From positions 7,006,001-7,070,000 of the forward strand of contig OZ024751.1 of NCBI GenBank assembly GCA_964016885.1: 64,000 nt of DNA, in the 5' to 3' direction. The stretch comes from Eledone cirrhosa (lineage: Eukaryota). The position numbers and the translations under genes are program-made. Shown piece after piece: positions 5,151-63,263 of this stretch (positions are counted from its first letter, which is position 1; every line of letters begins with the position of its first letter). The notes below the pieces were generated by a model. It searched no databases. It was not told the origin of the DNA and worked only from the letters and a program-made list of their open reading frames with translations.

Positions 5151-5203
5151 CAGCCTGAAGAGGTCACATCCAAAGATGGCTGTCACTGAAATATATATAG
5201 CAG
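5151..5203 (+). ncRNA. Type I hammerhead ribozyme (5' pLTR)
   Basis: cagc-CTGAAGA-ggtcacatccaaagatggctgtcact-GAAA-tatata-TA-gcag. Palindromic stem III ATATATAT; two mismatches in stems relative to the 3' copy. Confidence 0.75.
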
Positions 5204-5406
5204 TAATAAACGAAGCTAAATTTTAATCATTTGACTTTTATTTAACTTTATTTTACACTACTCCGGAGTAACCAAACCAACCTGCGCACTTCGTCGAGTG
5301 CTCCAGCCTGCATACTGAGGTGTTGGTATACAACCAACATAAACTCAAAATCTATCTAGCTCCCACACGGGTTGAGCGCTCCAAACAGTAGCGGACCTAA
5401 GTCACT

Positions 5407-9285: not shown

Positions 9286-9340
9286 ACTGCCTGAAGAGGT
9301 CACAGCCAAAGATGGCTGTCACTGAAATATATATAGCAGT
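9286..9340 (+). ncRNA. Type I hammerhead ribozyme (3' pLTR)
   Basis: actgc-CTGAAGA-ggtcacagcca-aaga-tggctgtcact-GAAA-tatata-TA-gcagt: stem I actgc/gcagt, ~10 bp stem II, palindromic stem III. Confidence 0.88.
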
Positions 9341-9389
9341 AATAAACGAAGCTAAACTTTAATCATTTGACTTTTATTTAACTTTATTT

Positions 9390-9513
<124 letters not shown>

Positions 9514-15024: not shown

Positions 15025-15096
15025 CTGTTTGATGATGACACGACACTCGCACACAGAACAGTGTGGCCAGTGTCGTCATTGAAATATATATCACAG
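15025..15096 (+). ncRNA. Hammerhead ribozyme copy with C3->U substitution (likely impaired)
   Basis: ctgt-TTGATGA-tgacacgacact..agtgtcgtcatt-GAAA-tatata-TC-acag. Confidence 0.6.
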
Positions 15097-16332
15097 AATA
15101 TTATTAAAGGACTTGAACATCTGAAACTACTTCGCTTTTCTTTATTAGATATTTACTCCGTCACTCCTATGTGGAAAAAGTACGTTGAGTGCTTGAATTG
15201 AATTGCATCAATGTTTACCCTAATAATTTAGCTCCAATTAGTTGAGCGCTCTATGATGTAACCGATATGGTGGAGAAGAGAGGAACCAACCAAGAGCTAC
15301 CCCGGAAATTCCCTCTACCATGGGGATGAAAACCCCTGACATTGGACGGGTATAATAGTAACTTTCGGCAGAATAAATACGCGGAAACAAAAAATAAGAT
15401 AAACCCCTATTTTCCTGCACCAAATCGCATTTGAACAGAAGCCCCCTCAATTCAATCTATACATGGAGAGATGGACAATCATATGGATCATTTTGCATAT
15501 ATGTACTCTGTGTTTTTGCATTTATTCACTATTGGTTCTGTTCTTTTCTTTTCTTTTGTGTACTTTATGTCTGTTTTTCTTTGATTTTGTTCCATGTGAT
15601 TGAAATTATGACTGTGTACCAGATTGACTAATGCCTTGAACCCTGTAGTTTGCCCTCCGTTATAATGTACGGCACTGTCGTTCAATGTGTGGATAGAGTA
15701 ACTGTGACACTAGAATCCCTCTCATAACTTATTACTTAAACATCTCTCTCCATATTATTTACTCCCTTCAATCTATATTTTTACTCAATCCGAAATTATC
15801 ACTTGAAAAATTTTTGAATTTCGAATTTTTAAATTTTTTAATTGTTTAATTTATAATCTCTGATATTTGATTTAGGATTTTAATTTTTAATTTGTATTAC
15901 CAACTCTCACTCTTAACTTACAATGTAAAACCATGGTACCTAGAATTAAGTTTATTTTCCCTTATGAGTTGATGGTCAGTCTTGCTGTCAACGCTTAGTG
16001 AAAGGTAGTATTATGACCTATAAAAACTAACACCTTCCCATCCTCTCTGGCTTTCGGCTGACTGCCACAGTCGTGATGGGTAGCAGTAAACTTTGGTAGA
16101 GCATAGGTGGGCCGTTGTTTTGGCTGAGAGGGTGAACTGACAGCGAATTTCGTTGAAATCTGCGATGGCTAATGGTCATCCTCCTTCGGACATGCGCTTG
16201 CGCCGACCGGGGGGGGGGGGGAATTGGTACTCACAAGGGAACGGATGAAAAACCCAAAAGCACGAACTTCATCCGTTCCCATGTCGATTCAATTTGGAAT
16301 GTCTCGGAAACATAACCTTATTATGTAACAAG

Positions 16333-16404
16333 CTGTCTGATGATGACACGACACTCGCACACAGAACAGTGTGTCCAGTGTCGTCATTGAAATATATATC
16401 ACAG
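16333..16404 (+). ncRNA. Type I hammerhead ribozyme with long stem II
   Basis: ctgt-CTGATGA-tgacacgacactcgcacacagaacagtgtgtccagtgtcgtcatt-GAAA-tatata-TC-acag. Palindromic stem III, AUC triplet. Confidence 0.8.
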
Positions 16405-16528
16405 TATTATTATTAAAGGACTTGAACATCTGAAACTACTTCGCTTTTCCTTATTCGATATTTACTCCGTCATTCCTATGTGAAAAAAGTACATTGAGTG
16501 CTTGATGTGAATTGCATCAATGTTTACA

Positions 16529-16580
<52 letters not shown>

Positions 16581-16658: not shown

Positions 16659-16848
16659 TGTGTCGACAAATCTACAAAAATATACGTTAGTGTCCAATCC
16701 GTATGGAGAACTCAATATAATCCAAATATCATGGAAAGAGAAGATGCATTCAAAAATTTTCGATATAAATCATAGGAAAACAGAGTCAAGATAAAGTAAT
16801 AAAAACAATGAAATAAAAACAAACACAAGTTCCTTATATAAAAAAATT

Positions 16849-16982
16849 CATCATTTTACGATCGTTTCTAGGACTTATATGTGTGTTGGTATGTATATCA
16901 TATAGATCTATGTAAAAATATTACAAATTATCAGGGGAAATATACATAACTTCACATACACATGCTGTCTTCAGAAATGATG
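16849..16982 (-). ncRNA. Type I hammerhead ribozyme with very long stem II (minus copy)
   Basis: Reverse-complement counterpart of 20828-20945, with a slightly longer stem II insert. Confidence 0.75.
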
Positions 16983-19900
16983 AGATGTGTTTATTGAAAA
17001 AACAAACAAAGATTTAATATAAAAAGTCTGTTTGGGAACAGGTTTTGAATTGACCAATAGAAAAGTAGTTAGAGATCAAGTTGAAAGAATAGTGGTAGTA
17101 GAAATTTAATTTAGGGGTAGAGGAGTACAGACTTATGTTTTGAATGAAAACAATACTTTGAATGAAAAGATTACTTTGGGGATGAAAAGATGTCAAGCCA
17201 GTGAAGGGTACACGAAAATTTGATGTTATTAAAGAATAATGTTAAAAATGAAGGAAAATAAAATGTTAGGGTAAGGGTTTTAGTGAGAAATACCAATCTT
17301 TAAACCACAAGGAATCTAAATCTATAACAAAAAATTGAATTAATTGATAGGTATACTTATAGGGATACATTTATATTAATTCATATTAATGTGATAAATA
17401 AGAATTAGATGTTATTAAAGAGTGTTGTTAAAAATGAAGGGTAGTAGTGAGAAAGGCCAATCTTATATAAACTACAAGGTATCTAGATTCATAACTGGAA
17501 ATTGAATTAATTTATAGGTATACTTTTAGGTATTAAATTTAGGAAAAGAGAGCTCTAAGAGGGAAATAAAATTATGAAGTTCTCTGTAGTAAAGTACTAA
17601 ATTACTAGGTTAACTAAATTATAAAAGACTAATTATAATGATATGTAAAATATAAGAGTAACGTGTATATTAATTAGGTTTATAATATTTGAAGGTTCTT
17701 CTATTTCTATGATTGCAAGATATAATTAATTCCTGTCGCTTATTTAATAGGATATCCTTAGATTTCATGATTTCAAAATGTTCCTGGGAGCATAACCTAC
17801 ACTCGTATCTGTTATTTTGATAAGGGGTGGCCCTTTTGAGCACACTCCAGGTCAGGTTGTAATCAATATTCTGCTTTCTATAATTATTAATTGTTTCAGT
17901 TAAGTATAATGATTAGCTAATGCGGCATTTTTACAACTATGTTTGTGGGTATTAAATCTTACATTAAATTGGTTAGACGTAGCTCCTATATATGAATAAG
18001 TGGAGTCCTTAGTGTTAATTTTACATTTATAGACTATGTTATTAATAAGACAATTTCCCTTTAATGGGCAATTTCTTTTGATTCTACAGTTACAACCATT
18101 CGTGAATATTATATCAAGGGAGATAGTCAAATTTGGTGTGGAATTTACTCGACTTGTTATAGGTGAAGTACATGGTGGTTTGTTGCGGTTTATTTTAGTA
18201 TTATCGTTGGTTTGATGTGTTGTTGGTTTATTTGTGTTTTGTTAACATGTATATGCGTTATACGCACTTATATTTTGTTGTATATTTTTGGTAGTGTAGT
18301 AGGAAAATTTGACAGTTGATCTATTTAAAATTTGATGGTATTTATGGTTTGGTGGGAAGTTTTTCTCTAGGATAGTATGACATTTTTTAGGGATATTATC
18401 TTTAATTTGTAGATTAAATCGAGCATTATACCAAGTAACCCGTCTATTACGGTTTCGATATTGTTTTTTATATTTTATTATATATAGTTAGATTAAATGA
18501 TTTAGGTGTTTTAGTCTGATTACTAGGAATTTTGTTAGTAGTGTTGTTAACATGAATTGGAGCATTAGGATGAATGTTTTTTTGAAAGTCATTATATTTT
18601 ATGTGAGAAGAGTTAGAGAAATTAAGTTTTAGGTTGGTATTTTTAGGTGTAGTATGAGTGGCATTTAGGTGTGGGTTTTTCATTTGGTGTTTATTGCTAA
18701 TATTCGATTGTATGTTTGAAGTATTATTGGTGCAAGGTATATAGACTAATTTGTTTTTGTGGCCGCTTCTAGCTAAAGTTTCGTTATAAAAGGGCGCGTT
18801 TTTATTGAATACATCCTTGTTAGATGAAAGGTTAGAGATTCTGAGTGAGATATGATATGCTAGGTTTTTAAGGATAGATCTAGGGTGCTTGGATTGTGAG
18901 TGTATGTAATGTAAGTTTTGGTTAGGTTTATGGTAAGGTTGGTATATACCCGTAGATAGGTCTAAAGTTATATTTAGGAAATTGACTATTTTACTGGTGT
19001 TTTCAAATGTAATAGTGAGATTGTAATAGTCTTTGAGAAAAGTTCTAAGTTTTTTATTTTTTCAATTTCTGATAGGCTAAGGTTAGTGGAAAGAAGAAGA
19101 CAGTCATCACGATATAAACCACCTTTAAGGTGGAGAAAAGATGAATTAATGTTAAATATAAGAAAGAGGCCCACTAGAGCCCATAGTAATGTCGAAGAGA
19201 TTACTATATGTATTTCTGGTCCAGTATTCCTTCTGAAACTCCAGTAGTGTTTGTCTAGCGTGCGTGATAATATTAATGTCATCCATAGTTAAGTTTGATT
19301 TATTTTTGGCAAATATCAAGGCTTTGTTCAGGAGTATGGGTGATATAGAGGAATAATACGCATCTATATCAAATTGTAGAAATGAAGCAGATGATTTATT
19401 TCTAATATTAGTAAACCAGTTAATTACTTGGGATGTCTTTTCCCAGAGTGGTAAGTTAACGTGTTTTCTTAATTGTGGGATGATTCTATCTAAAACAAAT
19501 TACCAATGATGCCAATATCTGACTTGGAAGGGCATATAGAAGGATTAGAGTTAAAGTTAGTTTTGTGATCTTTCAGGTTAAAGTGTGGTTTTTTTCAGTG
19601 CCAAAGGTTCCGTTCTGTCTTCAATAGTGAGTTTATTTACTATGTTCCATGTTTTGTTGTTGATATTGGTAAGAGCCACATTATTTGTTTTTTTAAAATA
19701 ATTTTTCCTGAGTTCTTTATAAATGAACTCATTGTAATTATCACTATCCATGTGATATAGATTTCCAGTTTTGTCTGATTGGACGTGGACTTTGCTAGAT
19801 TGTTTTAGATCCAATAGGGAAATAGTCAAGATCCTTTTGAAAATTAAATTCATATTTCGTAAATCTGAGGTGTTTGATTAAGTTAAATAGGTCTTTCTCG

Positions 19901-20827
19901 AACTTTTCAAGCAATGAGTTGTGTAGTGGGTTCTTATATGTGGTGAAATCATATAAATATTTATTATCATTAGAGTGTGCTCAAAAGGGCCACTCATTAT
20001 CAAAATAACAGATATGAGTGTAGGTATGCTCCCAGGAACTTTTTGAAATAATGAAATCTAAGGATATCCTATTAAATAGCGACAGGAATTAATTATATCT
20101 TACAATCATAGAATTAGAAGAACCTTCAAATATTATAAATCTAATTAATATACACTTTACTCTTATATTTTACATATTATTATAAATATTTTTTTAATTT
20201 ACTTAACCTATAATTAGTACAGAGAACTTCATAATTTTATTTCCCTCTTACAGCTCTCTTTTCCTAAATTTAATACCTAAAAGTATACCTATAAATTAAT
20301 TCAATTTCCTGTTATAAATCTAGATACCTTGTAGTTTATATAAGATTGGCATTTCTCACTACTACCCTTCATTTTTAACAACACTCTTTAATAACATCTA
20401 ATTCTTATTTATCACATTAATATGAATTAATATAAATGTATCCCTATAAGTATACCTATCAATTAATTCAATTTGTTGTTATAGATCTAGATTCCTTGTG
20501 GTCTAAAGAAGATTGGTATTTCTCACTAAAACCCTTACCCTAACATTTTATTTTCCTTCATTTTTAACATTATTCTTTAATAACATCAAATTTTCGTGTA
20601 CCCCTCACTGGCATGACTTCTTTTCATCCCCAAAGTAATCTTTTCATTCAAAGTATTGTTTTCATTCAAAACATAAGTCTGCACTCCTCTACCCCTAAAT
20701 TAAATTTCTACTACCACTATTCTATCAACTTGACAGCTAACTACTTTTCTACTGGTCAATTCAAAACCTGTTCCCAAACAGACCTTTTATATTAAATCTT
20801 TGTTGTTTTTTTTCAATAAACACATCT

Positions 20828-20945
20828 CATCATTTCTGAAGACAGCATGTATATGTGAAGGTATGTATATTTCCTCTGATAATTTGTAATATTAGATATA
20901 CATACCAACACACATATACATCCTAGAAACGATCGTAAAATGATG
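20828..20945 (+). ncRNA. Type I hammerhead ribozyme with ~80 nt stem II
   Basis: catcattt-CTGAAGA-c-ag-c-atgtatatgtg..ggtatg...catacc..cacatatacat-c-ct-a-GAAA-cgatcg-TA-aaatgatg: 8 bp stem I, palindromic stem III ACGATCGT, GUA. Confidence 0.85.
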
Positions 20946-21000
20946 AATTTTTTAATGTAAGGAACATGTTCTTTGTTTTTATTTCATTGTTTTTATGAAG

Positions 21001-21051
<51 letters not shown>

Positions 21052-26090: not shown

Positions 26091-27335
26091 ATCATCATCA
26101 TCATCATCAACGTTTAACGTCCGTGTTCCACGCTTGCATGGGTTTGGACGGGGGTAGTCCCACTTGAGGCAAGAGTGATTGTCTTGCTCGCATAGGACTG
26201 TCTGGCAGGTTTTCTACAGTTGGATGCCCTTCCTAACACCAACCACATTTACAGTGTGGGTCTGGGAGGTTTTTACCGTGTTGCCTACACGGCCACATTA
26301 CAGCGTGGACTGTGTGTTTTTTTGTCGTGACACCTACACGATCTCATTTGTTTCGGCCTCGATGGCGCGGCACCAACATAACTTTACATAGAACGGGGTG
26401 GTGTGGATCGGGTGGGGGTGGTGGGACGGGGTGTATTTGTTAGAGATGCCTACTGGCTGGAGTAGGTTTTACTATATATTTAGGTAAGGCGGGTCTTCTC
26501 TGTTACTGAGTACCGCCAAAGGTCTCGGTCCAGTGACATTGTCTTGGAGAGGTGTAAGTGTGTGATGTCGGAGTTTATCAGCTCGTCCCAGGTTTTTCTA
26601 GGTCTGCCTATTCCGTGACTACCGTCTATCTTTATTGCCCTGCACTTTGTTATACAGCTATCGACTTTCATGCGCATCACGTGTCCATACCAACGTAGCC
26701 TTCTCTCGAGTAAACAACATCTGATCCCTCTTATCTCTAATTTATTCCTTAGTTCGTTTATGCTTTGCCGTTCACGTATATTACTGTTACACATCCAGCG
26801 GAGCATGCAAGCTTCGTTCCTCTCTAGTCTGCGTATATCCTCTGCACACAATGCCCAGGTCTCACTGCCATGCAGCATTGCTGTTCGTATGCAGGCATCG
26901 TACAACCTGCCTTTCATTTTTAGTGAGAACCCTTTAGCAGCTAATAGTGGTATAAGCTCTCTGAACTTTTTCCAACCAGTTCTGACTCTAGCTACAGTAC
27001 TTTCAGAGCACCCTCCCCCACTGCTGATTTTATCGCCCAGGTAACGGAAGCTGTCCACTATTTCTATAGAACCCTCTGCGCAATTGAAAGAGCTAGTAGT
27101 TTTTGGGCACTTGCTGCTACTTATTGCACCAGAGCACCGGCCACATGTAAAATCTATGTTCTTAGTTAGCCTACCTGTGATCCCACTACATCTTTTATGC
27201 ACCCATACTTTGCATTTAGGACATAAAATGGAGTTTCTACCTACGCCTTTCCTACACACCGAGCACGACCATTTCCCAGAAGGGACCGCCGCCTTGTTTT
27301 CTTTCCTACAAACTAGTACTTTGGTCTTACGTTTA
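26091..27335 (-). mobile_element. 5'-truncated RTE-clade LINE: C-terminal part of the RT ORF with an embedded PHD-like Cys finger, 3' UTR and (GAT)n tail
   Basis: [81 protein letters not shown]; (atc)n tail at 26091-26108. Confidence 0.9.
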
Positions 27336-27345
27336 CATATATATA

Positions 27346-27509
<164 letters not shown>

Positions 27510-27528
27510 GCTTACATATATATATATT

Positions 27529-30316: not shown

Positions 30317-32025
30317 TTATTCGCTGACTTTTGTCCTTTTCGCCACGCTTTCCTCACTTTTATCTGCAGGAGTTTTCGATAAAAACCTGTCTACTGAGGT
30401 TTGTTTTATTCTCCCTCTCAGAATGTTTCTGAAATGAGTTAGGCAATATTCATTAATAGCGCTGTCGTAAGCCCAGTTGCAACTTTTTCCGGGTATTTGT
30501 TTTGAATAAATTCTGAAAGTTTCTCGCACATTTTTTCCCCAATATTTCCTATATCTCACATGTAGAGAGAACCTCCTCCGTGTCACCTATTTCCTGCAAC
30601 ACCTCCGTGTGCTGCTGCATCTGTAGCACCTTTAGCTCCTTCGTTGTCAGTTCCTCGGAGTGCTCCTGGATGAGCTCATTGATTTCACCTTCATCCATGT
30701 CCAGGTCTATGGACTTGCCAATGTATACAATCTCTTCCACTAATGCCGCTTCGGGTTCTAGTCTTTCGAAGTCCGTTTCAGACACAACCTCAGGCCACTG
30801 CTTCTTCCACGCAGAAGTCGATGTTCTGTTTGTAACACCTTGCCAGGACATATCGATAATTGTGAGGCATATCACGATGTTATAGTGGTCCTTCCAGAAC
30901 TCCCTAAGGGTGAGGTTTGTGCTCTCGGTCACCTGAAGGCAGCGGCAGAACAGGTGCTTGGTGAAGAGCTGCTTGAAATCATTTGAAATCACCTGTTGGT
31001 CCGTGGGCTGCAGGATAGGGGTAGTGTTGGGTGGAAGTTATAAACATTTATAAACTTGATCTCTTCGAGGATGTCGTCTTCGAGTTTAGGTGGGTGAGCA
31101 GGTTCATTGCGCATGACAAGAAGGGCTTGCAGAGGTAGGTTATTTTCCTGGAGATATTTCTTAACATCAAGACCAAAGACCAAATTCACCCACTCCACAA
31201 AGGATTTCCTGGTGACCCACGCCCTCGGGTTTGCCCCCCACACAACCTGCAGTTTTTTTCTTTCAGAATATTATGTGGCTCTGGGGTTTTCCGCATGATA
31301 AACGAGCAGCGGCTTAATCTTGCAGTCGCGGCTCGCATTGGCACAGTGTGAGGGTTAACCTATCCTTCATGGTGTGTGGCCTGGCATCCTCTTCTTCTCT
31401 GCCATTATATAAGTCGACCTTGGCATCTTCTTCCAAAATAGTTGTGTGTTGTCACATATGAAGAATTGCTGAGGGATGTATCCTTCGGTTGCTATAATTC
31501 CGGCAAACGTTTTGAGGTAATCCTCAGCTGCATTCATATCCGCACTCGTTGCCACACCATGTCTGACAAAGGAGTGAATGCTGGACCACTTTTTAAAATT
31601 CTCGCACCAGCCCGACTGGCTTTAAACGGTTTGCCCTATGCCTCGTCCGTCGAAGTACCTGGGGTCTGCTGCAGCAAACAGCGTAAAAAGCTCGTGCCTT
31701 CATGCAGATTATAGTCTCCGTCAAGGTATCTATTGCGAGCTGCTTCTCCGTCAAACACACTATCATCAGCTTTTCCATATTTTCATGGATAGATGTCCGC
31801 TGTTTAGATATTATTTTAAATCCCTTGGCTGGCGTTATAGATTTTATCGACTCTGTCTTCTTCAGTATGGTGCAGATCGTAAAAGTGCTACGCTCGTACT
31901 GCTTCGCCAAGTCGACTACACGCATACCATGATCGTTTATCGTTAATTTCTTTCTTTAATTCAATACACATCATCCGCTTCTTCTTCTCAGAACTGCCCT
32001 TCGTGCTCACTTTCTGCCGATCCAT
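30317..32025 (-). pseudogene. Frameshifted Tigger-type (CENP-B-like HTH + DDE_1) transposase
   Basis: KKKRMMCIELKKEI, DLAKQYERSTFTICTILK, QQFFICDNTQLFWKKMPRSTYI, WGANPRAWVT, LLVMRNEPAHP, TLREFWKDHYNI across several frames. Confidence 0.88.
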
Positions 32026-34187: not shown

Positions 34188-34252
<65 letters not shown>

Positions 34253-34258
<6 letters not shown>

Positions 34259-34865
34259 CGTAAAATAAGAAAATTATAAAATTAACTTACTTACTAAAAT
34301 TTCACTCCCAACTAATTTGTTTCTGAAAGGGAATAAACATACTTTCCGAAGAAGTGTACAGAGAAGCCTTTCGTCATCAGGGAAGTCTATTCTCAGCTAA
34401 GTTTCCAGGCAATACGTGGACACTGGGAACTTATACAAAAATAATTCAGTGGATAGAAAAAAGCAAAGCGTGGACTAAATTCCTAGCCATTGAGAAAATC
34501 ACTGCCTACTGCGTCGGTGGCAAATTCAAAAGAATCAATCACGTAACATCGAGGTCAATCAGTGGAAAGTGGTTTGTTAAGAAGACAGCAGCCTGACTGT
34601 TACCATAGCAGCAGTCTTGGCCAATTTTTCTCGACAAATAATTTGGAGATAATTATAAAGAATTAGTATATCTAGTAACATATATATACACACAGATGCA
34701 TACCTATGCTAGCAAATATATATGTTTTGTCTTAGTAACTTTGTGGTTCAATGCATGGGGTTGCAGAACAATAATATGAGAGACGTAAAATAAGAAAATT
34801 ATAAAATTAACTTACTTACTAAAATTTCACTCCCATTTTAGTAAGTAAGTTAATTTTATAATTTA
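34253..34865 (-). mobile_element. Non-coding HHR element, 525 bp monomer plus partial repeat and small inversion; diverged relative of the 563 bp array
   Basis: gagacgtaaaataagaaaa repeated at 34255 and 34780; inversion at 34836-34865. Shares gaatagacttcc-CTGATGA-cg, cagtgtcc.cg.attgcctgga.actta.ctgagaatag and ttgttctgca with the 60404 array; abuts (TA)n. Confidence 0.85.
34304..34386 (-). ncRNA. Type I hammerhead ribozyme
   Basis: acttcc-CTGATGA-c-gaaagg...cctttc-a-GAAA-caaattag-TT-gggagt. Confidence 0.8.
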
Positions 34866-37090: not shown

Positions 37091-37817
<727 letters not shown>

Positions 37818-38535: not shown

Positions 38536-38879
38536 CACATACATACATAACCATACATATATACATGCATATACACATATCAATATGTGCGAACCACTGG
38601 GAAGTAGTTCAGCAGCAGAAATAACAAATAAATGAATAAGATCAAAAAATTCAAAAAGTATATACATATAAGAACATCCAAATCAAAATCAAAATAAAGT
38701 CAAAAAGGTACGTGTTGACTACGAAAGTTGTGTGTGTGTCTCTCTAAAATACAAACAACTTAAAAACAAACAAATACACACGATATGCATATATATATAT
38801 AGGCGAGAGAGAGCAACTTTACGGACACGATTTTTGACAGCGGTAAGAAATTATTTTCTTATATCAAAGTTTAACGGGC

Positions 38880-39005
38880 TTCCACTGATGATTTATAAGT
38901 GCCCACCTAAATATATACTTACATGAATATATATTAGGCTTCTACATAAACTGGAAACATTCTCCCAAACTTGTAGAAAACTTATAATGAAACAATTGTT
39001 TGGAA
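38880..39005 (+). ncRNA. Type I hammerhead ribozyme with a branched ~95 nt stem II domain
   Basis: ttcca-CTGATGA-t-ttataag-[cctaaatata..tatattagg; ttctaca..tgtagaa]-cttataa-t-GAAA-caattg-TT-tggaa. Palindromic stem III ACAATTGT. Confidence 0.82.
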
Positions 39006-39883
39006 AGGGAGATATACTTTAACTTTAATTATATCTCATAAAATAATACAACTGGTTTTTCCACATTATACATATTGTTAGCACCCAAACACTTAAATTG
39101 GCTTTATATTTTAATATAACCTAATGTTTGTTGAGTGAGATGGTTACCAGTCAGAGTTTAGCTTTAAACTATCTCTGTTATTGTATTAAATATTTACTCT
39201 TGATTGGCCAGAGGTATTTATTTCCAGGTACCTTATGAATTTGACTTTCCGTATTTATTACTGTTGTGAAATATTGTGGCTTTTTTTTGGTTGTAACTTC
39301 TCTGTTTTTTAGCCTAAGAAAATATATATATATGCCTACGTATATAATTACATGCATATATTTATTTTCTTTTATTAATTGAGTTCTTTACACGAGGCAT
39401 AAATATTGGTTTTGAAATAACTAATTAACCCGCGTGTGTTTTATATTTTACTCTTAATTCGACCGGAGAATTATATTCCCATTTGCCCTTTATGGCATAA
39501 CTTTCTGCATTTACTGCGGTTATGAGAAGCGGTTCTTATTCGGGTACAACTTCTGATTTAGCCTAAGAAAATATCTATATGCGTGTGTAATTTATACAAG
39601 CATATATTTATTTTTTTTATTTTCAATTTAGTTCTTAAACACGTTGGATTGATAATGTTTTCAAAAAAACAAATTAACCCGCGTGTATATTATTATTTTT
39701 TTCCTCATTTCGTGGATCGTGGGTTGTCTCCCCTTCCCGCTTCGTGTCGCTATGATACTTCCTCAGTCAAAAACTGCTGGAATTATAAATTTGACGGTCA
39801 TTCGAGGCGAGAGAGAGCAACTTTACGGACACGATTTTTGACAGCGGTAAGAAATTATTTTCTTATATCAAAGTTTAACGGGC

Positions 39884-40007
39884 TTCCACTGATGATTTAT
39901 AAGTGCCCAACTAAATATATTCTTACATGGATATATATTAGGCTTCTACATAAATGGAAACATTCTCCCAACTTGTAGAAAACTTATAATGAAACAATTG
40001 TTTGGAA
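39884..40007 (+). ncRNA. Type I hammerhead ribozyme, second copy
   Basis: Same as 38880-39005 with core and stems intact. Confidence 0.82.
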
Positions 40008-40300
40008 AGAGAGATATACTTTAACTTTAATTATATCTCATAAAATAATTCACTGGTTTTTCCACATTATACATATTGTTAGCACCCCAAACACTTAAAT
40101 TGGGTTTATATTTAAATATAACCTAATGTTTGTTGAGTGAGATGGTTACTAGTCAGAGTTTAGCTTTAAACTATCTCTGTTATTGTATTAAATTATATAT
40201 ATATATATATATATAGTAATAATAATAAATTTGAAGACTAAAATCCAAAGAGGGCTCGATAAGGATAAATATATAGTATATATGTGTTTTAATATAGAAA

Positions 40301-42310: not shown

Positions 42311-42780
42311 TGGTTACTATAACCTCAGGACAGCTATCAAGTCTCTCACTGGTACTGCTAGACAGGTTTACTAGGTGGGACGGAATTATAATGAGACCCT
42401 TTTAAGAGGTTGTAGTAATCAACCGAGTATATCTTACAGTGACGTGTCAACAAGTGGGGGGCCAAAATACTAAAGAAACTACCACGAAATAATAATTCAG
42501 AGTCCCGAGACTAATAAGAAATAATGGTTTCTACCCTAGGCACAAGACCAGCAACCACCCAGTGCAAAAAATAAACTAATACGAAATAATAATTCAGAAT
42601 CCCGAAAAAGAATACTAATACTATCTCTAAGGGTGCCGCTACGATACAAAAAATCTAGTGCAAACTACATAAATGCTCGTACGAAGTATATGAAAAATTT
42701 GATACGGAAAATTAATTCAGAATCATTCCCCCCCCCCCCCCCCCCCAAAAAAAAAATACCTGATACTCAAAACCTCACCA

Positions 42781-44174
42781 ATGTCCAGTAGTGCTACGTT
42801 TAATATTCTGATCGCAGATTTGGTACGAGCGATGAAGAATGTGTCCCGCATGTGCGACCCAACAGAAATGGAAAGACACATCCAACACTTCATCAACCGC
42901 ATGCAGTTCTCTGGCTACAACCAACGAGACAGAGTCAGAGTATACGAAGGAGCCATGGAGAAGTATAAGACCCTCATAGAACTCGACATGAAAGCAATTT
43001 GCCCATTATACAGGAGCAAATCCTGGAATAGCATAGATAGGGCTAGACATAAGATAGGGAAAGCCACCTCATGGTACGACAACCAGAGATACCAGAGTGT
43101 CATGTTTGTGGATGCTACCTCTGGAGGGAAATTAGCTAACCAGTGTAGAAAGGCCCTGAGAAAGACCCACTTAATGATTAAGGTGGTAGAAAAGCCAGGA
43201 ACCACCATAAAATCCCTGATCAGCAAAACCTACCCTTTTAAGAAAACCCACTGTACTAATAGGAAATGTATCATATGTAAGGTAACCCCCACCCCCGATA
43301 AACTGTAAAACTAGAAACGTAGTCTATAGCATAATATGTACAGAGGGTACTTGCAGAAACATGACAACAACATACATAGGCGAAACAGCTCGTAGCATAG
43401 GTGAAAGGATAGACCAACACTGGGGGGAACTAAAAGGACGAAAAAACGGGTCAGTACTATACGAACATATCAGACAACAACACGACGGTAACATAGACAA
43501 CAGAGAAATTAGAATAATATCTAAGCATAGAAATGACCCAGCAGATAGGCAAATCAGAGAGGCCAGGGAAATAGAACTTAGAAGGCCAAGACTAAACAGA
43601 AAGAATGAATGGAATAACAACAACACCCAAACAAACAACACTGACCTAAGAGAAGTATAAATAAATAAAAAATAGATAAATAAATACATACACAAGCACA
43701 ATAACAACAAACAGATATAAACACACACTAGTAAACATAGAATACATTAACCAATACACAGTCACCCAATCACGAACACACATCAAACAAAACACTATAC
43801 ACACACGCAAACGCATGCGCAAAGAAGACACAATAAAATAAACAAACAAACAAATAAATAAATAAATATATAAACAGACTAAATAAAGATGGCGTAGAAA
43901 TACAATGCAACGTGAGGAATCTATAGCACCACTGACGATGTTGCAGATGTGCAACGAAAGAACTTTGATAAACTATATATATCTGTTTGTGTCTATATTG
44001 TATCTGTATTATTTTTGACCGTTGGTCAGTCAATGGCAACATTGAGGACCGAATAAATTAGATTACCGATATAAAAGACACAGAAGAGAAAAGGGAAAAC
44101 CAACCAAACAGTGAGTGTGTTCTGTTATTAATTAATTCTGGCAATATTACACAAATATGACCCTCCCCAAGTAT

Positions 44175-44266: not shown

Positions 44267-44353
<87 letters not shown>

Positions 44354-44439
44354 AGGAGGTGAGTTTTATTGTAGTACAATAAAGCAATGCAGATATCGGA
44401 TAAGAAGCACTCTACAGTTTGTATGACTGGAGTATACAT

Positions 44440-44747
44440 AATATATAAGAACAAAAGATGGTTAAAAGAGTTCCATGTATTTTATTATGCGCATTTCAAA
44501 AACAAATATCATCATGCAATAATATTTGTGTTTTCATCAGATAAAACAGGAGGACAAGATATGAAGGTTAAAAAACACTTGTGGATAGTTCAGTTTTAAA
44601 ACTGAACTATCCACAAGTGTGTTTTAACCTTCATATCATGTCCTCCTGTTTTATCTGATGAAATCATAAATATTATTGCATGATGATATTTGTTTTTGAA
44701 ATGCGCATAATAAAATACATGGAACTCTTTTAACTATCTTTTGTTCT

Positions 44748-44755
<8 letters not shown>
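44440..44755. mobile_element. Spacerless ~316 bp palindrome of a pLTR end with two opposite HHRs (44479-44547 minus, 44648-44716 plus)
   Basis: Centre gtggatagttcagtttt|aaaactgaactatccac. Plus HHR: gttttat-CTGATGA-[aaatattat/atgatattt stem]-GAAA-tgcgca-TA-ataaaat. Same family as 54371-54525. Confidence 0.88.
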
Positions 44756-45432: not shown

Positions 45433-46290
45433 TAATAAAATAATTCCAACTTCGTCTGATTCACTCGTTTTATTTACAATCCTTTAAAATTTATAATGGT
45501 ATTAGAATGAAATAGTATGGTAGAATATTAAATGTTAAGTGTTAATTGAACATGTACTTTCATGCTTTAGCAATCTTCAGGTTCATAATGTGTGGTGACA
45601 GTCAAGTTTGCAATTTTCAACTGTAATTTGATGGTTAAATTTTGTGCCTTATATACAGTGAAAAGTGGCTCCAGAATGTTAAATCTTGCAAACTGTATTT
45701 CGACCAATCGGTGTGTAGTTTCACTGGATTACTAAAGCTGATAGGTTTAGGCGTCACCGTTGGTTGAGCATGTCTAACGACTACTAATTGACCCTATCCA
45801 AAGCATCAATTGTTTTGCTATTTTTAGAAATGATGAAAATAGCATTTTCTAGTAATCATCACCATCAACATCAGTTTTATTATTATTATTATTGTTGTTG
45901 TTGTTGTTAGTGGTCGTATTCATAGTTATAGTAGGATTAATATCCCATTATTATTGTTCATTTAACTTGGGTTTGAATTTATCAATAACATTCTTTTCTT
46001 TGATTTTTCTCTTGATTTCACTTAGGCTGTGTAATTTGTAGAATGGGAATATTATAAATATTCCCTGACCACATGTTGCTAGATGGTTACCGAGGGGTAT
46101 CTGACGGACATTTGGGTCTCTGATTTGCTGTCGGTGTACCCGTGCACGTTCCGATAGTGCATTTCCAGTTTGACCGACATACAGTTCTTCAAAATTCGGG
46201 CATTTAATGCAGTAAATTAGATTTCTGCTTTTGCAATTGATATTTGCATTTGGCATTGGGGTCAATTTAATTGACTTTCCTTTTAAAGAA
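45432..46290 (-). mobile_element. Neptune-like PLE 3' fragment: GIY-YIG + pLTR with a degenerate HHR (45548-45594)
   Basis: NCKSRNLIYCIKC..LYVGQTGNALSERARVHRQQI..HLATC..KFKPKLN. gaac-CTGAAGA-t-tgc-taaa-gca-t-GAAA-gtacat-gttc (U16.1 lost). Confidence 0.85.
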
Positions 46291-46347
46291 TGGAAAAATA
46301 TTCCCATATGTGTGTATATATATGTATATATATGTGTGTGTGCATGT

Positions 46348-46402
<55 letters not shown>

Positions 46403-48932
46403 TTTACTACTAAGCAATACAATACAATTGCGAATACAAGCGGTAGAGGGCATAGGTTTGACACTAGGGTGTTGCTCTGGGTTGATAGACGACATCTGCG
46501 AATTAAAATTAAGAGATCATTGTTCTGATACTGCTGCAGATAGTCGGAATGTTTATGGAAAGAATCGTTCGGTATATCCTAATGACAAATCCACCCGGCT
46601 GTAGACCCTGCTGTTGACCACGAGTACTATTGTGCAGCATGATTCATCCAGTGTAGTGTATGTGTTGTTGAGCACGGTCACGTGTTCTTAATTCCTAATG
46701 GTTGAGTGAAGAGATTTTATTATATAGCGAGGAAAGAGCTTGCCCGATCTATCTGATGAGAAGCGCCTACAACGTGTGAATCAATTTGAAGCACTGAATA
46801 CATGGCAACACCAAGCACGTGTGTTGGACGGAAGTAATACTTGAAGTGAGAAATGGGTACTTTTCTCAACACCGAGTTCCGTCGCCTGTCTCTTAAACAC
46901 CCAGATATATCTTATTGAGCGGACATCTCTATTAAAAATATGTTCATAATGTGATTACCTGCATAACCAAATCTGCCCGTTTGGCAAAATAGTTCATTCA
47001 TTTCCTTGTCGTATATCAGGGCTGAGACAGGGGATTCAGATTATTCTTCATCTAGGGCAGGAGACGGTGAAGTTGTATTGCATTATATGTTTATATATTT
47101 GCTTTCTGTAAGCAAAACTGCAATCGTATGTATTTTTATGGCGTGAAAATTACAGAAACCTCAACCTTATTGATTTTACTATCGGAAACCGAAGAATGTT
47201 TAAATATCATATCTGACAGATAATCTATGAAATATGTAAGACATTTTTTTGTGTCTGGTGAATACATTGCCAATATCGACTAACGTCACAACGTATTACG
47301 ACTGCTCATGTCAGAGTATAAATACAATAACATTTTGCTATTTCCTTAAAATACATCTTCCATTCTTACGGGAATTCAACAGTAAGGAGATAAATATTAT
47401 AGACAATTTCAATTGAAGATATCGAGTACAAATAGATGTATACGTCACTGTGTGCATATGGTGCCATATGTAACGTGCATTGAATTCAGACTATTTTTAA
47501 ATGCAGCTACTTAAAACTTTATACAAGTAGTATAGTTTCAATCCATGTGATTTCAACATGCAATTACGTTATTATATAAGGTTTATCCCTGTACTGATAT
47601 AGTAAAATCAGCCATTAGGGTGATTGGGATGCCCCCAAAATGGTGCGTCCCATCAAATCTTTTGTCGTATAACGGCTGACCAGATGGTAAACAATATCAA
47701 CAAGATCAACACACTTTACGAACATGTTATATGAAAATTGAATTTGAAATTGTTTGAATTTAAAAACGAAATGTCCAATATAGTTGTTCGGTGCGTAGTA
47801 AGGATGCAATGTATACAGTGACATTAATGACAAGTAAATACCTATGAATATTCAAACAAATCTTCACGATTCCTCAAAATGATTTCACATATTGATGTGA
47901 CAAACAGGTGCAGCACAGCATGGTTTTCAATCCCACTACCTGCAAAGTCGGATCTTCAATATTGTTACTGACTCTCAAATAATGTCTAGGAATTAGATGT
48001 GTTTGCAACCGCTATTAAAAAATCATGGAAGAAGAATGGCTCACTTATGAACAAATCATGCAAATGAAGCATCGGTACGAAATATTGTTATCATTATTAC
48101 TTTCCAATAACACATACAATCTATATATTGGACTAAAATGCGCCGTTAAAGACATTCCGTGCTCTTCGTTAGCTATTTTCATATATTTCATATGAAGCCA
48201 ATTGTGTGCGTGTGTACGTGTGCGTATGTGTGTGTGTATACACGAAGATTCACTCTCCCCGTCTCCTCCTCCTATGTTTTCCTTGCTGGCCCCTTACGTC
48301 CTGAAAACTCAACAATTATAAAAGGTCAGATATATATTCTGTGAAAAATTCTACTATAAAAAGCTCTAAAATTATACGATAATTAGGATTAAAAAAATAT
48401 CCGTCTAACAAACAATGTTGAATCCGATATATCAACGCCTTTAGTAAAAGAGCAACAAGGAAAAAAAAATTGATATTGACTTTCGCATGATGTACCGTAC
48501 GAGTGCATGTTGCCAGTAGAAAAGATTGAAATCAGCAGAAACAAACTGAAAGAAAAATAGACACGAAAATAAACAAAATCGTGGTTTAGCAGATTTACTA
48601 TATTGGAGAGTTGGGGAATAGAAAAAATTGAAAACAACCAAAAGTACATGGTCTTATATCATATAATTATATTGTACACATTTGCTTGCGATAAAAATAT
48701 TGAGTGTGCAATAAATATGCCAACCACTTTCATTTTATTGCTAACAATATTTATCATAAATAAAATAAAATGAAGATAGAAGAAACAACTATTGAAAGAA
48801 AATATACATGGAAAGTGACTTGTAGAGGGAAAAGCAAGACATAATTAGATCAAATAACATTCTTTGATGCTGCCACGAAAATAAAATGAAATAATAGTAG
48901 AGATTATTTAAGAAACATATACGTGCACATAC

Positions 48933-57229: not shown

Positions 57230-60200
57230 CTATTCGAGTGGCGCCGGTAAGGTATTGTCAGCCATTGAAAGGAAATATGGAAAGAATATGTAACAGCACC
57301 AGGGTTAGAACCCCTAGTTAAACTGTCAAGGAGCAGTCTGGTCGTTAGGACTCTGTTGGTTTAGAGTCACAGCGAGTGCCTGTCGATGATGGATCAGCTA
57401 TCTCTGAGACAAATATAAAGAATGCAGTTTTGTCATGCAGAAGAGCCATCAAAATGGGCACTTTGAATGTGAGGACTATTCGGACCCTGGAGAAGAGAGA
57501 GGAGTTAGGACATCTGTTCGAGGAGAGTGGTATACAGATACTTGCGATCCAAGAAGACATGATCCTACACAATGAGCCCGTGAGGAGTGTGATGTTTGGG
57601 AAGATTAATCAGCTCATCACCACATCGGAAGTGAGGAACATTACCAATGCTGCTGTGGAAGGAGTGGGTTTTGTTTTCAGCACAAAAACCAGTCTATTTG
57701 TGAGGGAAATAATACCTGTCTCCCTGCGAATGTTGAGGGTTACTTTCAATGAAAACCCAAGACTGACACTCATCTGAGCCTATAGTCCAACTGAGGGAGA
57801 CAGTGATTTGAGTGCGGAAGATTTCCATGAGGGTGTGTGTAGAGCTGTCAACACCACACAAGCACACAACATCCTGCTTGTTTTGGGGGACTTCAATGCA
57901 CATCAGCGTAAGGAGGGCATTGAAGATCGTTGCTGGTACGTCCATAACAACACCAACCGAAATGGAAGACTACTGAGAGACACCCTGCTGGAGGCGAACT
58001 TGATAGCGACCAACCTAAGGTTTAGGGAGAATCTGGGGAAGATATGGACCTACATCTCAGATATGTACCTGTCCAAGTCCCAGATTGATTTCATTCTGGT
58101 GAGGAAAAAGTGGCGGAATAGGGTTCTGAACACAGAACCATACAACTATTTCAGTACACTGGGTAGTAACCACCGGCTTGTTATGATTGAGGTCCGCGTG
58201 AGCTTAACAAAGAGCAAGGCTCAGCCGCGGAGAGCAATCTATGACTGGGGAGCTTTCAAGGAAGATGATAAGCTACAGGAGAGGTTCACAGTGGAAGTGA
58301 GGAACAGGTTCAGTGCTCTGTGTGGAGAGACAGATGAGAGACAGATTGGATGGACTGAGGAGAGTGTGACGAGGAGGTACGGGCACTTCAACAATGCAGT
58401 GGCGGAAGCAGGTGAGATCCTGGTGCCGAGGAGAAAGAACAAAAGGAAGCACGTCAGCTCTGCAGACCCAAAAGTGTGTGCAGCCAGAGAACACCTGAAA
58501 GCTGCCAAGGACCAATTCTGTGCTGATCCTACGGAAGAGAGGATAGAGATTGTGGAGGTGATGAAGGGAAAACTCTGTACCGCTTACACTGAGGCCAAAG
58601 AGGAAGCACTGATAAAGAAGATCAGAAGTGTGGAGAGAGCGGTTGACAGGTCTGGATGTAAGGAGAGCTAGATTATCATCAACGAGATCATAGGGAGGAA
58701 GAGAAGGTGATCGAGTCAGATCCAGGGAACAGGGACTGAGGATAGGAAGAGGAAATGACTAGACCATTTTAGGACCCTACTAGGAGAATCGCCCTCCACA
58801 GCCTAGAGCACTGGGGAGATCAGGCGGCTGTTTGAAGAACATGATATTGAGACAAAGCCCTTCACCAGAGAGGAGCTTCAGAGAGCCAAGAAGAAGATAA
58901 AGGAGGGCAAGTCTCATGGAGAAGATTGAGAGGCATCAGAGGTGATGAAGAGGTGTGATTTTGATGATATCATCCTGGGGTTCTGTAACCAAGCACTGGA
59001 GAGAGGAGTTTCCCGAATCAGTGGAGGATCAGTAACATCGTCCCAGTGCTACAGAAGGGAGATCTCTCTAACACCAACAGCTACAGGGGGATCTCACTGA
59101 CGTCACTTGTGGCAAATACTCTCAACAGGATGATTCTTAACAGGATCCAGCCTGAAATCGAGAAGAAGCTCAGAGAGGGAAGATCTACCACCAGTCACAT
59201 CCTGATGATGAGGAGGATATTAGAGGGACCTAGAGCAAAGTGCCTTCTTGCGGTCATGGTTTTCATTGACTTTAGGAAATCCTTTGATTCTGTGGACCGT
59301 CACTGCCTAATCAAGATCTTACACGTTTATGGAATCCCCAAAAAGATAGTGGACCTGATATCACTGCTCTACACCAACACCAAAGCCCAAGTAATTACAC
59401 CTGATTGGGTGACAGAGTTCTTTGAAATACTGGCTGGAGATACTTTAGCTCCCTACCTTTTTATCATCGTAGTGGACTATTGTATGCACCTTGCGCTGGA
59501 GAAACACCAGGACTCTGGCTTTACTGTAGCACCGGCCCAGAGCAGGAGAGTAGGCGAAAAAAATATCGGATGCTGAATTTGCCGACGACATAGTTTTGGT
59601 GACAAATACAGTGAAGGAGGCAGAGTATTTGATGCAGGAGGTTGAAACTGTGTCGATGAGTGTGGGGCTCAGAATGAATGAGACTAAAACAAAATAGTTG
59701 GTAGAGAATGTTGAGAAGCCAGAGGGGTTCACTAATGTAGGCGGGAAGCCGCTAGAATTGGTTGAGGACTTCCTGTATTTGGTAGCAAAGATTGGAAATA
59801 CGGAAGATGATGTGGTTAAGTGGAAGAGCAAAGCCTGGGCGGCGTGCCGCAGCTTGAGATCGGTGTGGAAATCAGACCTTCGTAAAGACCTGGATGGGTG
59901 CTACACGAGAATGCTGAGGATGGCTCTGAACATTAATCAGTATACACTGAGGATGAAAATCTCAGAGCTGTATGGGAGCCTCCCAAAAGTTAGCTCAAAA
60001 GTGACTCAGAGGAGACTGTGGTTAGCTGGAGATGCTCACCGAAATCCAGAGTTGACATTGCGCACAGTGCTCCTGTGGGAGCCCCTACATGGAAACACTG
60101 GAATAGTAAGATCAAGGTTAACGTATGTTGATGCCCTAAGGACAGAAACTGGTCTGTTGTAGACGCAGGACATAGCAGCCATAATGAGGGACAGAGACCG

Positions 60201-60248: not shown

Positions 60249-60287
<39 letters not shown>

Positions 60288-60294
<7 letters not shown>

Positions 60295-63217
60295 TAATTT
60301 AATATATCAACTAACATAAGCGCACAGATGCACGCCCATGCCAGCAAATACACAGGTTATGTCATAGTACCTAGGTGGTTCAATGCAGGAGAATGCAGAA
60401 CAATTGTTCTGCATTCTCCTGCATTGAACCACCTAGGTACTATGACATAACCTGTGTATTTGCTGGCATGGGCGTGCATCTGTGCGCTTATGTTAGTTGA
60501 TATATTAAATTATCTATATTTATCTCCAAATCACTGATTTGTCGAGCAAACTTGTCAAAACCACTTCTAAAAAAATTTTTTTTGGGGTGTTAGTAGGCGT
60601 CAGTCATCTTACCATCCCATTCCTTCTAACTAGCCTCTGTGTCACGTGATTGATTCTTTAGAATCGGCCATTTGACTTGAAGCAGTGAGAATTTCGGTAC
60701 ATTGAATTCAGTCCTCGCAAGCTGTTCGATCTACCGAATTATTATTATTTTTATATGAGCCGCCAGTGTCCGCGCATTGCCTGGAGACTTAACTGAGAAT
60801 AGACTTCCTGATGACGCAATGAATTCTCGACAGTTGGATTACATAACTGTCTTTATCCCATTGCAGAAACTAATTAGTTGGAGTGAAAATTTAAGTAAGA
60901 AAAAAATTTTTTTTTTTTTAAATTTTTTTTAAAGAAATATTTTCTTATTTTACGTCCTTTATATTATTGTTCTGCATTCTCCTGCATTGAACCACCTAGG
61001 TACTATGACATAACCTGTGTATTTGCTGGCATGGGCGTGCATCTGTGCGCTTATGTTAGTTGATATATTAAATTATCTATATTTATCTCCAAATCACTGA
61101 TTTGTCGAGCAAACTTGTCAAAACCACTTCTAAAAAAATTTTTTTTGGGGTGTTAGTAGGCGTCAGTCATCTTACCATCCCATTCCTTCTAACTAGCCTC
61201 TGTGTCACGTGATTGATTCTTTAGAATCGGCCATTTGACTTGAAGCAGTGAGAATTTCGGTACATTGAATTCAGTCCTCGCAAGCTGTTCGATCTACCGA
61301 ATTATTATTATTTTTATATGAGCCGCCAGTGTCCGCGCATTGCCTGGAGACTTAACTGAGAATAGACTTCCTGATGACGCAATGAATTCTCGACAGTTGG
61401 ATTACATAACTGTCTTTATCCCATTGCAGAAACTAATTAGTTGGAGTGAAAATTTAAGTAAGAAAAAAATTTTTTTTTTTTTTTTTTAAATTTTTTTTAA
61501 AGAAATATTTTCTTATTTTACGTCCTTTATATTATTGTTCTGCATTCTCCTGCATTGAACCACCTAGGTACTATGACATAACCTGTGTATTTGCTGGCAT
61601 GGGCGTGCATCTGTGCGCTTATGTTAGTTGATATATTAAATTATCTATATTTATCTCCAAATCACTGATTTGTCGAGCAAACTTGTCAAAACCACTTCTA
61701 AAAAAATTTTTTTTGGGGTGTTAGTAGGCGTCAGTCATCTTACCATCCCATTCCTTCTAACTAGCCTCTGTGTCACGTGATTGATTCTTTAGAATCGGCC
61801 ATTTGACTTGAAGCAGTGAGAATTTCGGTACATTGAATTCAGTCCTCGCAAGCTGTTCGATCTACCGAATTATTATTATTTTTATATGAGCCGCCAGTGT
61901 CCGCGCATTGCCTGGAGACTTAACTGAGAATAGACTTCCTGATGACGCAATGAATTCTCGACAGTTGGATTACATAACTGTCTTTATCCCATTGCAGAAA
62001 CTAATTAGTTGGAGTGAAAATTTAAGTAAGAAAAAAATTTTTTTTTTTAAATTTTTTTTAAAGAAATATTTTCTTATTTTACGTCCTTTATATTATTGTT
62101 CTGCATTCTCCTGCATTGAACCACCTAGGTACTATGACATAACCTGTGTATTTGCTGGCATGGGCGTGCATCTGTGCGCTTATGTTAGTTGATATATTAA
62201 ATTATCTATATTTATCTCCAAATCACTGATTTGTCGAGCAAACTTGTCAAAACCACTTCTAAAAAAATTTTTTTTGGGGTGTTAGTAGGCGTCAGTCATC
62301 TTACCATCCCATTCCTTCTAACTAGCCTCTGTGTCACGTGATTGATTCTTTAGAATCGGCCATTTGACTTGAAGCAGTGAGAATTTCGGTACATTGAATT
62401 CAGTCCTCGCAAGCTGTTCGATCTACCGAATTATTATTATTTTTATATGAGCCGCCAGTGTCCGCGCATTGCCTGGAGACTTAACTGAGAATAGACTTCC
62501 TGATGACGCAATGAATTCTCGACAGTTGGATTACATAACTGTCTTTATCCCATTGCAGAAACTAATTAGTTGGAGTGAAAATTTAAGTAAGAAAAAAATT
62601 TTTTTTTTTTAAATTTTTTTTAAAGAAATATTTTCTTATTTTACGTCCTTTATATTATTGTTCTGCATTCTCCTGCATTGAACCACCTAGGTACTATGAC
62701 ATAACCTGTGTATTTGCTGGCATGGGCGTGCATCTGTGCGCTTATGTTAGTTGATATATTAAATTATCTATATTTATCTCCAAATCACTGATTTGTCGAG
62801 CAAACTTGTCAAAACCACTTCTAAAAAAATTTTTTTTGGGGTGTTAGTAGGCGTCAGTCATCTTACCATCCCATTCCTTCTAACTAGCCTCTGTGTCACG
62901 TGATTGATTCTTTAGAATCGGCCATTTGACTTGAAGCAGTGAGAATTTCGGTACATTGAATTCAGTCCTCGCAAGCTGTTCGATCTACCGAATTATTATT
63001 ATTTTTATATGAGCCGCCAGTGTCCGCGCATTGCCTGGAGACTTAACTGAGAATAGACTTCCTGATGACGCAATGAATTCTCGACAGTTGGATTACATAA
63101 CTGTCTTTATCCCATTGCAGAAACTAATTAGTTGGAGTGAAAATTTAAGTAAGAAAAAAATTTTTTTTTTTTTTTTTTTTAAATTTTTTTTAAAGAAATA
63201 TTTTCTTATTTTACGTC

Positions 63218-63224
<7 letters not shown>
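60288..63224 (+). mobile_element. Five near-identical ~563 bp non-coding HHR monomers in tandem, preceded by a 116 bp spacerless inverted copy: retrozyme-like array
   Basis: Units start at 60404, 60967, 61535, 62096 and 62658 and appear to differ only in poly-T length. Palindrome centre gcagaacaa|ttgttctgc; (TA)n on both flanks. Confidence 0.93.
60803..60884 (+). ncRNA. Type I hammerhead ribozyme (identical copies at 61366-61447, 61934-62015, 62495-62576, 63057-63138)
   Basis: acttc-CTGATGA-c-gcaatg-aattctc-gacagtt-ggattacat-aactgtc-tttatcc-cattgc-a-GAAA-ctaattag-TT-ggagt. Palindromic stem III ACTAATTAGT, GUU triplet. Confidence 0.87.

Positions 63225-63263
<39 letters not shown>

Follow-up and report, generated by a model that had tools for sequence, protein, structure and literature searches.

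Metazoan non-LTR retrozymes are described as non-coding elements that carry type I hammerhead ribozymes in tandem repeats, and they have been proposed to be derived from, and mobilised by, Penelope-like elements (Cervera and de la Pena 2020, PMC7229834). A 2026 preprint (Li, Clavereau and Pollet, bioRxiv 10.64898/2026.07.22.740005) derives retrozymes from pseudo-LTRs and reports cleavage for one of nine dimers tested. Partial tandems are the normal insertion form of Penelope-like elements, and one such non-coding partial tandem, MRC1 of Chlamydomonas, was once called an LTR element for its pseudo-LTR (both PMC8557442). For plant LTR retrozymes, Cervera et al. (2016, PMC4918200) describe mostly type III hammerheads together with a PBS, a PPT, 4-bp duplications and ends like those of Gypsy elements.

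Here, we describe the locus 38801-40193 in a 64,000-nt stretch of Eledone cirrhosa DNA (contig OZ024751.1; hereafter the window). We consider it likely that this locus is a non-LTR retrozyme, that is, a multi-copy, non-coding and non-autonomous Penelope-like element, inserted as a partial tandem and probably moved by elements of the Hydra clade. The reading rests on the layout, the type I hammerheads, the TA target, the many relatives, the sharp 3' end and the graded 5' side; the Hydra clade is suggested as the mobiliser by the hammerhead variant (U.U and U17) together with the TA target. The locus is a large addition to the published Penelope-mobilised kind and does not represent a new architecture.

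Layout, hammerheads and predicted RNA of the element

The element has an A-B-A layout on the plus strand, in which the direct repeats A1 (38801-39191, 391 bp) and A2 (39805-40193, 389 bp) enclose a 613-bp non-coding core, B (39192-39804). A1 and A2 share 380 matches and differ by eight substitutions and four one-base indels (96.9% identity). The whole amounts to 1.39 copies of a 1004-bp unit (39192-40193), the second copy being 5'-truncated and placed upstream, which agrees well with the original prediction of 390 bp hammerhead-bearing repeats around a core in 1.4 copies of a 1004 bp unit. A1 is a pseudo-LTR, a 5' partial copy of the unit's 3' end that starts with AG after a TA run. B is the 5' body of the unit and is also present in other copies in three contig sets. 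A2 is the 3' end of the full unit, with its terminus fixed at 40193, 191 nt past the cut, as indicated by a drop in depth and by an independent contig that enters (AT)n there.

Both flanks are TA runs, as had been noted, and the element ends are AG..AT. From the boundaries, we read the unstranded runs at 38789-38800 (5') and 40194-40216 (3') as the target; any target-site duplication falls within the TA run. At 38788-38802 and 40194-40217, (TA)n is followed by G on both sides, and the AG with which the element opens could belong to the flank just as well as to the element. The junction at 38801 is compatible with a target duplication inside the TA run plus a 2-nt microhomology. Inspection of the boundaries by eye revealed no tRNA-Met PBS following the 5' repeat and no PPT preceding the 3' one, and neither TG..CA ends nor a 4-bp target duplication is present there. 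No tRNA was detected, and a bacterial promoter scan, which is not apt here, stayed at chance level.

Two hammerheads are located at 38880-39005 and 39884-40007 (both plus strand). Each consists of a 5-bp stem I, CUGAUGA, a U.U pair, an 8-bp stem II, GAAA, the palindrome ACAAUUGU and U17. In the first copy, stem I is formed by 38880-84 and 39001-05, the core occupies 38885-91, the U.U pair is 38892/38988 and the palindrome 38992-99. CTGATGA is found at 38885 and 39889 and GAAACAATTGTT at 38989 and 39991, so that both cores are intact; the stem III palindrome of the hammerheads is ACAATTGT. Stem II encloses two hairpins, and the core halves lie 97 nt (copy 1) and 95 nt (copy 2) apart. The intact cores, the branched stem II of about 95 nt and the palindrome of the original prediction are thereby confirmed, and like it we predict cuts after 39000 and 40002, 1002 nt apart. 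As the open helix is stem I, the hammerheads are of type I and not type III. Their cores are non-canonical at two places that the original prediction does not mention: stem II has U.U for G-C at its base, and the cleavage position is a U. A strict hammerhead descriptor yielded 12 motifs in the window, more than expected by chance, as none of 100 block-wise dinucleotide shuffles contained any; Rfam gave no hammerhead match for the whole window or for the element region.

The predicted cut-to-cut monomer RNA (39001-40002, plus strand; 1002 nt, 31% GC) folds better than shuffled sequences (z -5.6 linear and -3.9 circular, 25 shuffles each), with 56-59% of it paired. A competing GGGC/GCCC hairpin over the 5' half of the core (38876-38904, also 39880-39908, plus strand) has a pair probability of 0.73-0.92, compared with 0.00-0.14 for stems I and II, and a further hairpin directly 3' of the cut (39010-39038, plus strand) appears in free and constrained folds. 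By these folds, the ribozyme is predicted to be blocked for the most part. A single transcript can form the double hammerhead, which is nested, but at 15.0 kcal/mol above the free fold, compared with 13.9 when both hammerheads fold as monomers. A 1.0-kb RNA could geometrically be excised, but the fold needed is predicted to be disfavoured. Judged from these models, the hammerheads would most likely cut slowly, as a dimer via the palindrome and/or with the help of a protein.

The core contains two degenerate head-to-tail subunits with a period of about 255 bp (39182-39709, plus strand; subunits 39182-39459 and 39437-39709). This internal duplication had been noticed as one of about 140 bp, which is its best part; its real extent is about 255-275 bp at about 71% identity (z 29 versus 200 shuffles). 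Within 39277-39638, some reads and contigs skip 265-279 nt or step back by about 245-260 nt, which suggests that the number or type of internal subunits differs among family members.

The core had also been described as free of ORFs. There is in fact a stop-free frame of 138 codons at 39562-39978 (107 aa from ATG), longer than in 99.9% of 2000 shuffles (P 0.001), but it is without a homologue: it has no Pfam match, no atlas match above 0.76 and none among 1.84 billion representatives. We rejected this frame as a gene, given the lack of a homologue and, in the family majority, a stop at 39629 and frame-shifting indels at 39611 and 39710 (codons by hand). A tblastn search with the 15 retroelement frames of the window found no RT similarity in the element (best E 1.4), and the RT and GIY-YIG ORF that marks an autonomous Penelope-like element between its pseudo-LTRs is absent by the same search. 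We also rejected the alternative, raised in the original prediction, that the middle region is a decayed RT ORF, as neither an RT match nor a homologue of the longest frame was found.

Relatives in public runs and neighbours in the window

Eight of 12 public runs listed contain part of the stretch, none contains half of it and none is recorded as RNA. Relatives were sought on 38590-39804 at 80% likeness in X1 and X4 (organism A), X5 (organism B) and the RAD run X10, leaving out X2, X3, X6-X9, X11 and X12 (X6-X9 for their small shares). The element is a dispersed multi-copy family, with matches in all four runs tried: 1780 contigs in X1, 95 in X4, 58 in X5 and 3599 RAD reads in X10. Because the unique flank is not closely matched, these contigs and reads are relatives of the element and not the 38801-40193 locus itself.

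Depth, here the sum of contig depths and not a copy number, falls across the 3' edge of A by 9.6-fold in X1, by 29.8-fold in X4 and from 12.1 to 0 in X5. At the 5' edge, the ratio between the first bin of A and the last bin of B is 0.43, 0.58 and 1.35 in the same order, while the median depth of A over that of B is 5.4, 6.8 and 1.8; the first 80 bp of the core have zero depth in X5. The family thus ends sharply on its 3' side, where the repeat stops, but is graded on its 5' side, the pattern of partial tandems with 5' truncation (pseudo-LTRs). An X5 contig, from the second organism, stops matching at 39193, beyond which it consists of (AT)n. One X4 contig spans the A-to-B junction (39138-39431) with 9 differences and 9 gaps, and since this diverged contig crosses from repeat to core, the junction is not private to the 38801-40193 locus. 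One contig each in X4 and X5 begins matching exactly at 38801, preceded by 15 and 29 letters, respectively. Position 38801 could be a recurrent 5' boundary, and the preceding letters may be the end of B. The expectation that other copies vary at their 5' start and share a fixed 3' end agrees with the summed depth, whereas these two contigs speak against a freely variable 5' start. X10 has more depth at the 5' edge than where the core ends, but in this RAD run the ends of reads, like the loose ends, coincide with AATT sites, and they were therefore excluded from the mapping of element ends.

Among the 40 differences listed, of 215 in all, none falls in the hammerhead core, the U.U pair or U17, and near-fixed differences occur elsewhere. 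These features are probably family traits. In two X1 loose ends the first hairpin of stem II has diverged but, judged by eye, can still pair, and one A-U has become C-G; this is thin evidence, from the 24 loose ends listed of 405. At four of the positions where A1 and A2 differ (38917, 39008, 39102 and 39112), the family-majority letter is carried by the 3' copy; some copy-1 letters and both homopolymer indels (38967, 39083) segregate in the family. A1 and A2 may have been non-identical already at insertion. Beyond these runs, pattern scans returned 76 viral and 3 metagenome loci, all chance matches (best blastn E 0.001, longest 30 bp), and a 25-mer search gave no match.

Within the window, a frameshifted Hydra-clade Penelope-like element at 5121-9391 (plus strand) encodes DKT, CxCX5C and, at the C terminus, GIY-YIG (compared by eye with PMC8557442). 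It carries two hammerheads, one of them 54 nt before the TA flank, and its 3' end is repeated upstream as a pseudo-LTR of 135 bp, which is the layout of 38801-40193 with an RT ORF inside. An apparent target duplication of about 35 bp lies beside its TA runs. Two further Hydra remnants are found at about 16.7-19.8 kb and 54.4-57.1 kb; the Hydra 3' UTRs in the window are 1.0-1.3 kb long and AT-rich, with internal duplications. In the remnant at 16660-21004 (minus strand), 1 kb of the 3' end is present a second time in inverted orientation. The stem II regions of its hammerheads measure 99 and 83 nt, with C.A at the base, and long stem II inserts are therefore not unique to 38801-40193.

Other non-coding hammerhead units are arranged in tandem. 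At 60403-63225, five head-to-tail copies of a 563-bp non-coding hammerhead unit are 98.8-99.7% identical. The array (60284-63225 in all) has one type I hammerhead per copy, with C.A at the base of stem II, a 10-nt palindrome and U17; It is flanked by TA at either side, and its 5' end bears an inverted copy of 121 bp. It is a young, textbook retrozyme array and a better circular RNA candidate than 38801-40193. A single relative of this unit (about 70%) with its own hammerhead (core 34380) and a TA end is located at 34188-34799 (minus strand). At 13938-16534, two copies of a unit of about 1305 bp are 95.8% identical, contain no frame of 100 aa and have a TA end. A hammerhead-like motif lies at 16337, and the first copy (15029) has C3 changed to T; the unit exceeds any animal retrozyme unit in the published text consulted. 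The copy numbers in the window form a series of 1.03, 1.39 (38801-40193), 2 and 5.

An inverted hammerhead pair (44540, minus; 44655, plus) surrounds a near-perfect hairpin (44553-44642) at 44346-44750, and the Hydra remnant at 54.4 kb has a 3' end similar to its plus-strand member. Nine listed hammerheads (9291, 16974, 20836, 25607, 27888, 34380, 36894, 44540 and 63062) lie 53-204 nt upstream of a TA/CA run; their stem III palindromes are varied and most are without the canonical G-C pair that closes stem II at its base. Remnants that probably belong to other Penelope-like clades are located at 12275-12910 (minus), 42703-43660 (plus) and 45951-46403 (minus; GIY-YIG Pfam match). The features at 26480-27511 (minus), 57349-60162 (plus), 30549-31955 (minus) and 37476-37790 (plus) are presumably LINE remnants, a pogo/Tigger-like transposase remnant and a SINE. 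The SINE has a tRNA-like head that scores 25.3 bits with the Rfam tRNA model, below threshold.

None of 11 other hammerhead or 3' UTR regions aligns to the 1004-bp unit above z 2.7, which places the autonomous partner outside the window. A relation of the unit to the 563-bp array or to the Hydra 3' UTRs was not detected (z at most 2.7; one alignment covers the core motif only). Two short motifs are absent from the supplement text of Craig et al. (PMC8557442), as far as that text was available.

Mobilisation and alternative explanations

By our own count in File S2 of PMC8557442, 14 of the 25 families of the Hydra clade have a stem II with U.U at its base, ten have U17 and eight have both, whereas the six Chlamys/PLE-X families there have neither. 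The combination of U.U and U17 with a cut 191 nt from the end is suggestive of a Hydra-type hammerhead, a type that is not exclusive to the clade. In the process that we propose, the RT/GIY-YIG protein of a Hydra-clade element would nick (TA)n. Reverse transcription would start at a fixed site 191 nt past the hammerhead cut, copy more than one unit and stop at 38801.

The insert extends 200 nt to the 5' side of cut 1 and 191 nt beyond cut 2, and hence cannot have arisen by one pass over a linear, doubly cut RNA. Reverse transcription may have begun internally on a circular monomer and gone round it 1.39 times, a route proposed in PMC4209133, or the template may have been a tandem transcript that was left uncut; we give each of these somewhat less than an even chance and a template jump a small one. 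For the anole Poseidon element, in vitro work reports an internal RT start, AT-rich targets, uncut RNA as the main substrate and a hammerhead that needs protein (PMC11167929). The junction of a circle has the same sequence as the genomic hammerhead, so the junction reads suggested in the original prediction are uninformative by themselves. Because A1 and A2 differ by eight substitutions, this locus can be used to distinguish linear read-through from a template or product that is circular. Two parts of the original prediction, mobilisation of the Penelope type and pairing as a dimer via the stem III palindrome, are well supported, but had already been published (PMC4209133, PMC7229834, bioRxiv 10.64898/2026.07.22.740005). 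Against our reading stand that no autonomous partner was found in the window or in that supplement text, that the unit is above published sizes and that 56-59% of the monomer is paired, versus more than 70% reported for retrozymes. The X5 values at the 5' edge and in the first 80 bp of the core, the two contigs that begin matching at 38801 and the X10 depth, with its AATT limitation, count against it as well.

The repeat is deeper than the core in all three contig sets (medians above), as would be expected if truncated 3' ends or a partner shared it. This raises the question whether the locus is no family of its own but simply 3' UTR sequence from an autonomous Penelope-like element that inserted in two pieces, first 391 bp and then 1004 bp, each truncated at its 5' side. 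The size, AT-richness and internal duplications of the Hydra 3' UTRs in the window would fit such an origin. We nevertheless hold it to be improbable: a diverged contig from a different sample also contains the repeat-to-core junction, and in X1 the first bin of the core has a depth (10.6k) similar in order to that of the remaining core (median 16.9k). We see even less room for the alternative along the lines of the original prediction, a true LTR-like element convergent with plant LTR retrozymes, whose 391-bp terminal repeats would be fixed and regenerated in each round. The sizes reported for plant retrozymes (repeats of 300-400 bp, core of 300-600 bp) do fit, and two contigs begin matching at 38801. 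However, the repeats behave as those of a partial tandem, the hammerheads are type I instead of type III, and PBS, PPT, TG..CA ends and 4-bp duplication are all lacking. Moreover, two of the three contig sets have no twofold depth step at 38801 and none of the three has one like the 3' step, and the neighbouring elements have 1.03, 2 and 5 unit copies.

The 391-bp copy could also postdate the insertion. Here, a monomer would have inserted first and the copy would have been added by local DNA duplication or unequal exchange, without reverse transcription of more than one unit. Li et al. (bioRxiv 10.64898/2026.07.22.740005) favour local amplification for retrozyme arrays, and at 38853, 38875 and 39017 both copies share family-minor alleles. 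The duplicated piece, however, ends exactly at the family 3' terminus, its junction recurs elsewhere, and partial tandems are described as the usual insertion form of Penelope-like elements, so that we regard this as the least likely of the explanations considered.

Comparison with known retrozymes and Penelope-like elements

Insertion as a partial tandem, probably moved by Penelope-like elements, places 38801-40193 beside systems already described. What is new compared with the published text consulted is the 1004-bp unit, the branched 95-nt insert in stem II and the pointer to the Hydra clade as mobiliser; published links name Penelope-like elements in general, whereas the U.U variant and the TA target point to this clade. 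Animal retrozymes are thereby extended to about 1 kb and to a lineage for which we found no prior report. A literature search, mostly of open papers and with Repbase and Dfam outside its scope, found no published cephalopod or octopus retrozyme or hammerhead Penelope-like family, and the main text of an octopus repeat annotation (PMC13282606) does not mention ribozymes or retrozymes.

A more far-reaching reading, which we put forward as a rather unlikely one, is that the genome hosts an overlooked size class of animal retrozymes (0.56, 1.0 and 1.3 kb) mobilised by Hydra-clade elements. The 38801-40193 family would then yield a 1-kb circular RNA, the largest in an animal. Its hammerhead would be held off by the blocking hairpin and switched on via the conserved three-way junction of stem II, possibly a binding site of the Penelope protein. 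If true, the partner clade would have a name, and one could test directly whether a circle or an uncut RNA serves as the template.

Like the metazoan non-LTR retrozymes described to date, the element is non-coding, AT-rich (31% GC) and head-to-tail, with a type I hammerhead, a weak palindromic stem III and no PBS or PPT. The axolotl HHR_Amex2 shares the U.U at the base of helix II; it cleaves to 22% as a monomer and better as a dimer (PMC7229834). The unit differs in size, 1004 bp compared with 150-450 bp in PMC7229834 and with 51-972 bp across 35 genomes in bioRxiv 10.64898/2026.07.22.740005 (periods up to 1000 searched, no mollusc among the genomes); the upper value of 972 bp, 32 bp below our unit, is a descriptive range and not a definition. 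It also differs in the branched stem II insert of 95-97 nt and in that its RNA is only predicted here. Li et al.'s 'active' class has two complete units, whereas 38801-40193 has 1.39 copies with two intact cores.

With the plant LTR retrozymes, as described in PMC4918200, the element shares two hammerhead repeats of 300-400 bp, a non-coding core, a hammerhead predicted to be blocked and a cut-to-cut RNA near 1 kb. Unlike these, it is without a type III hammerhead, PBS, PPT, Gypsy-like ends and 4-bp duplications. The non-autonomous Chlamys elements of a green alga are reported to share 3'-end similarity with autonomous partners, a similarity not found for our unit among the 11 regions compared. 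There is likeness in target and ribozyme detail with the Hydra-clade Penelope-like elements (Craig et al. 2021, PMC8557442). No sequence match of the 1004-bp unit to a Hydra element was found, it is without the RT-EN ORF, and its stem II region is about 95 nt compared with about 25 nt or less as published; yet it has in common with them a (TA)n target, a hammerhead near the 3' end, the U.U pair, U17 and a pseudo-LTR.
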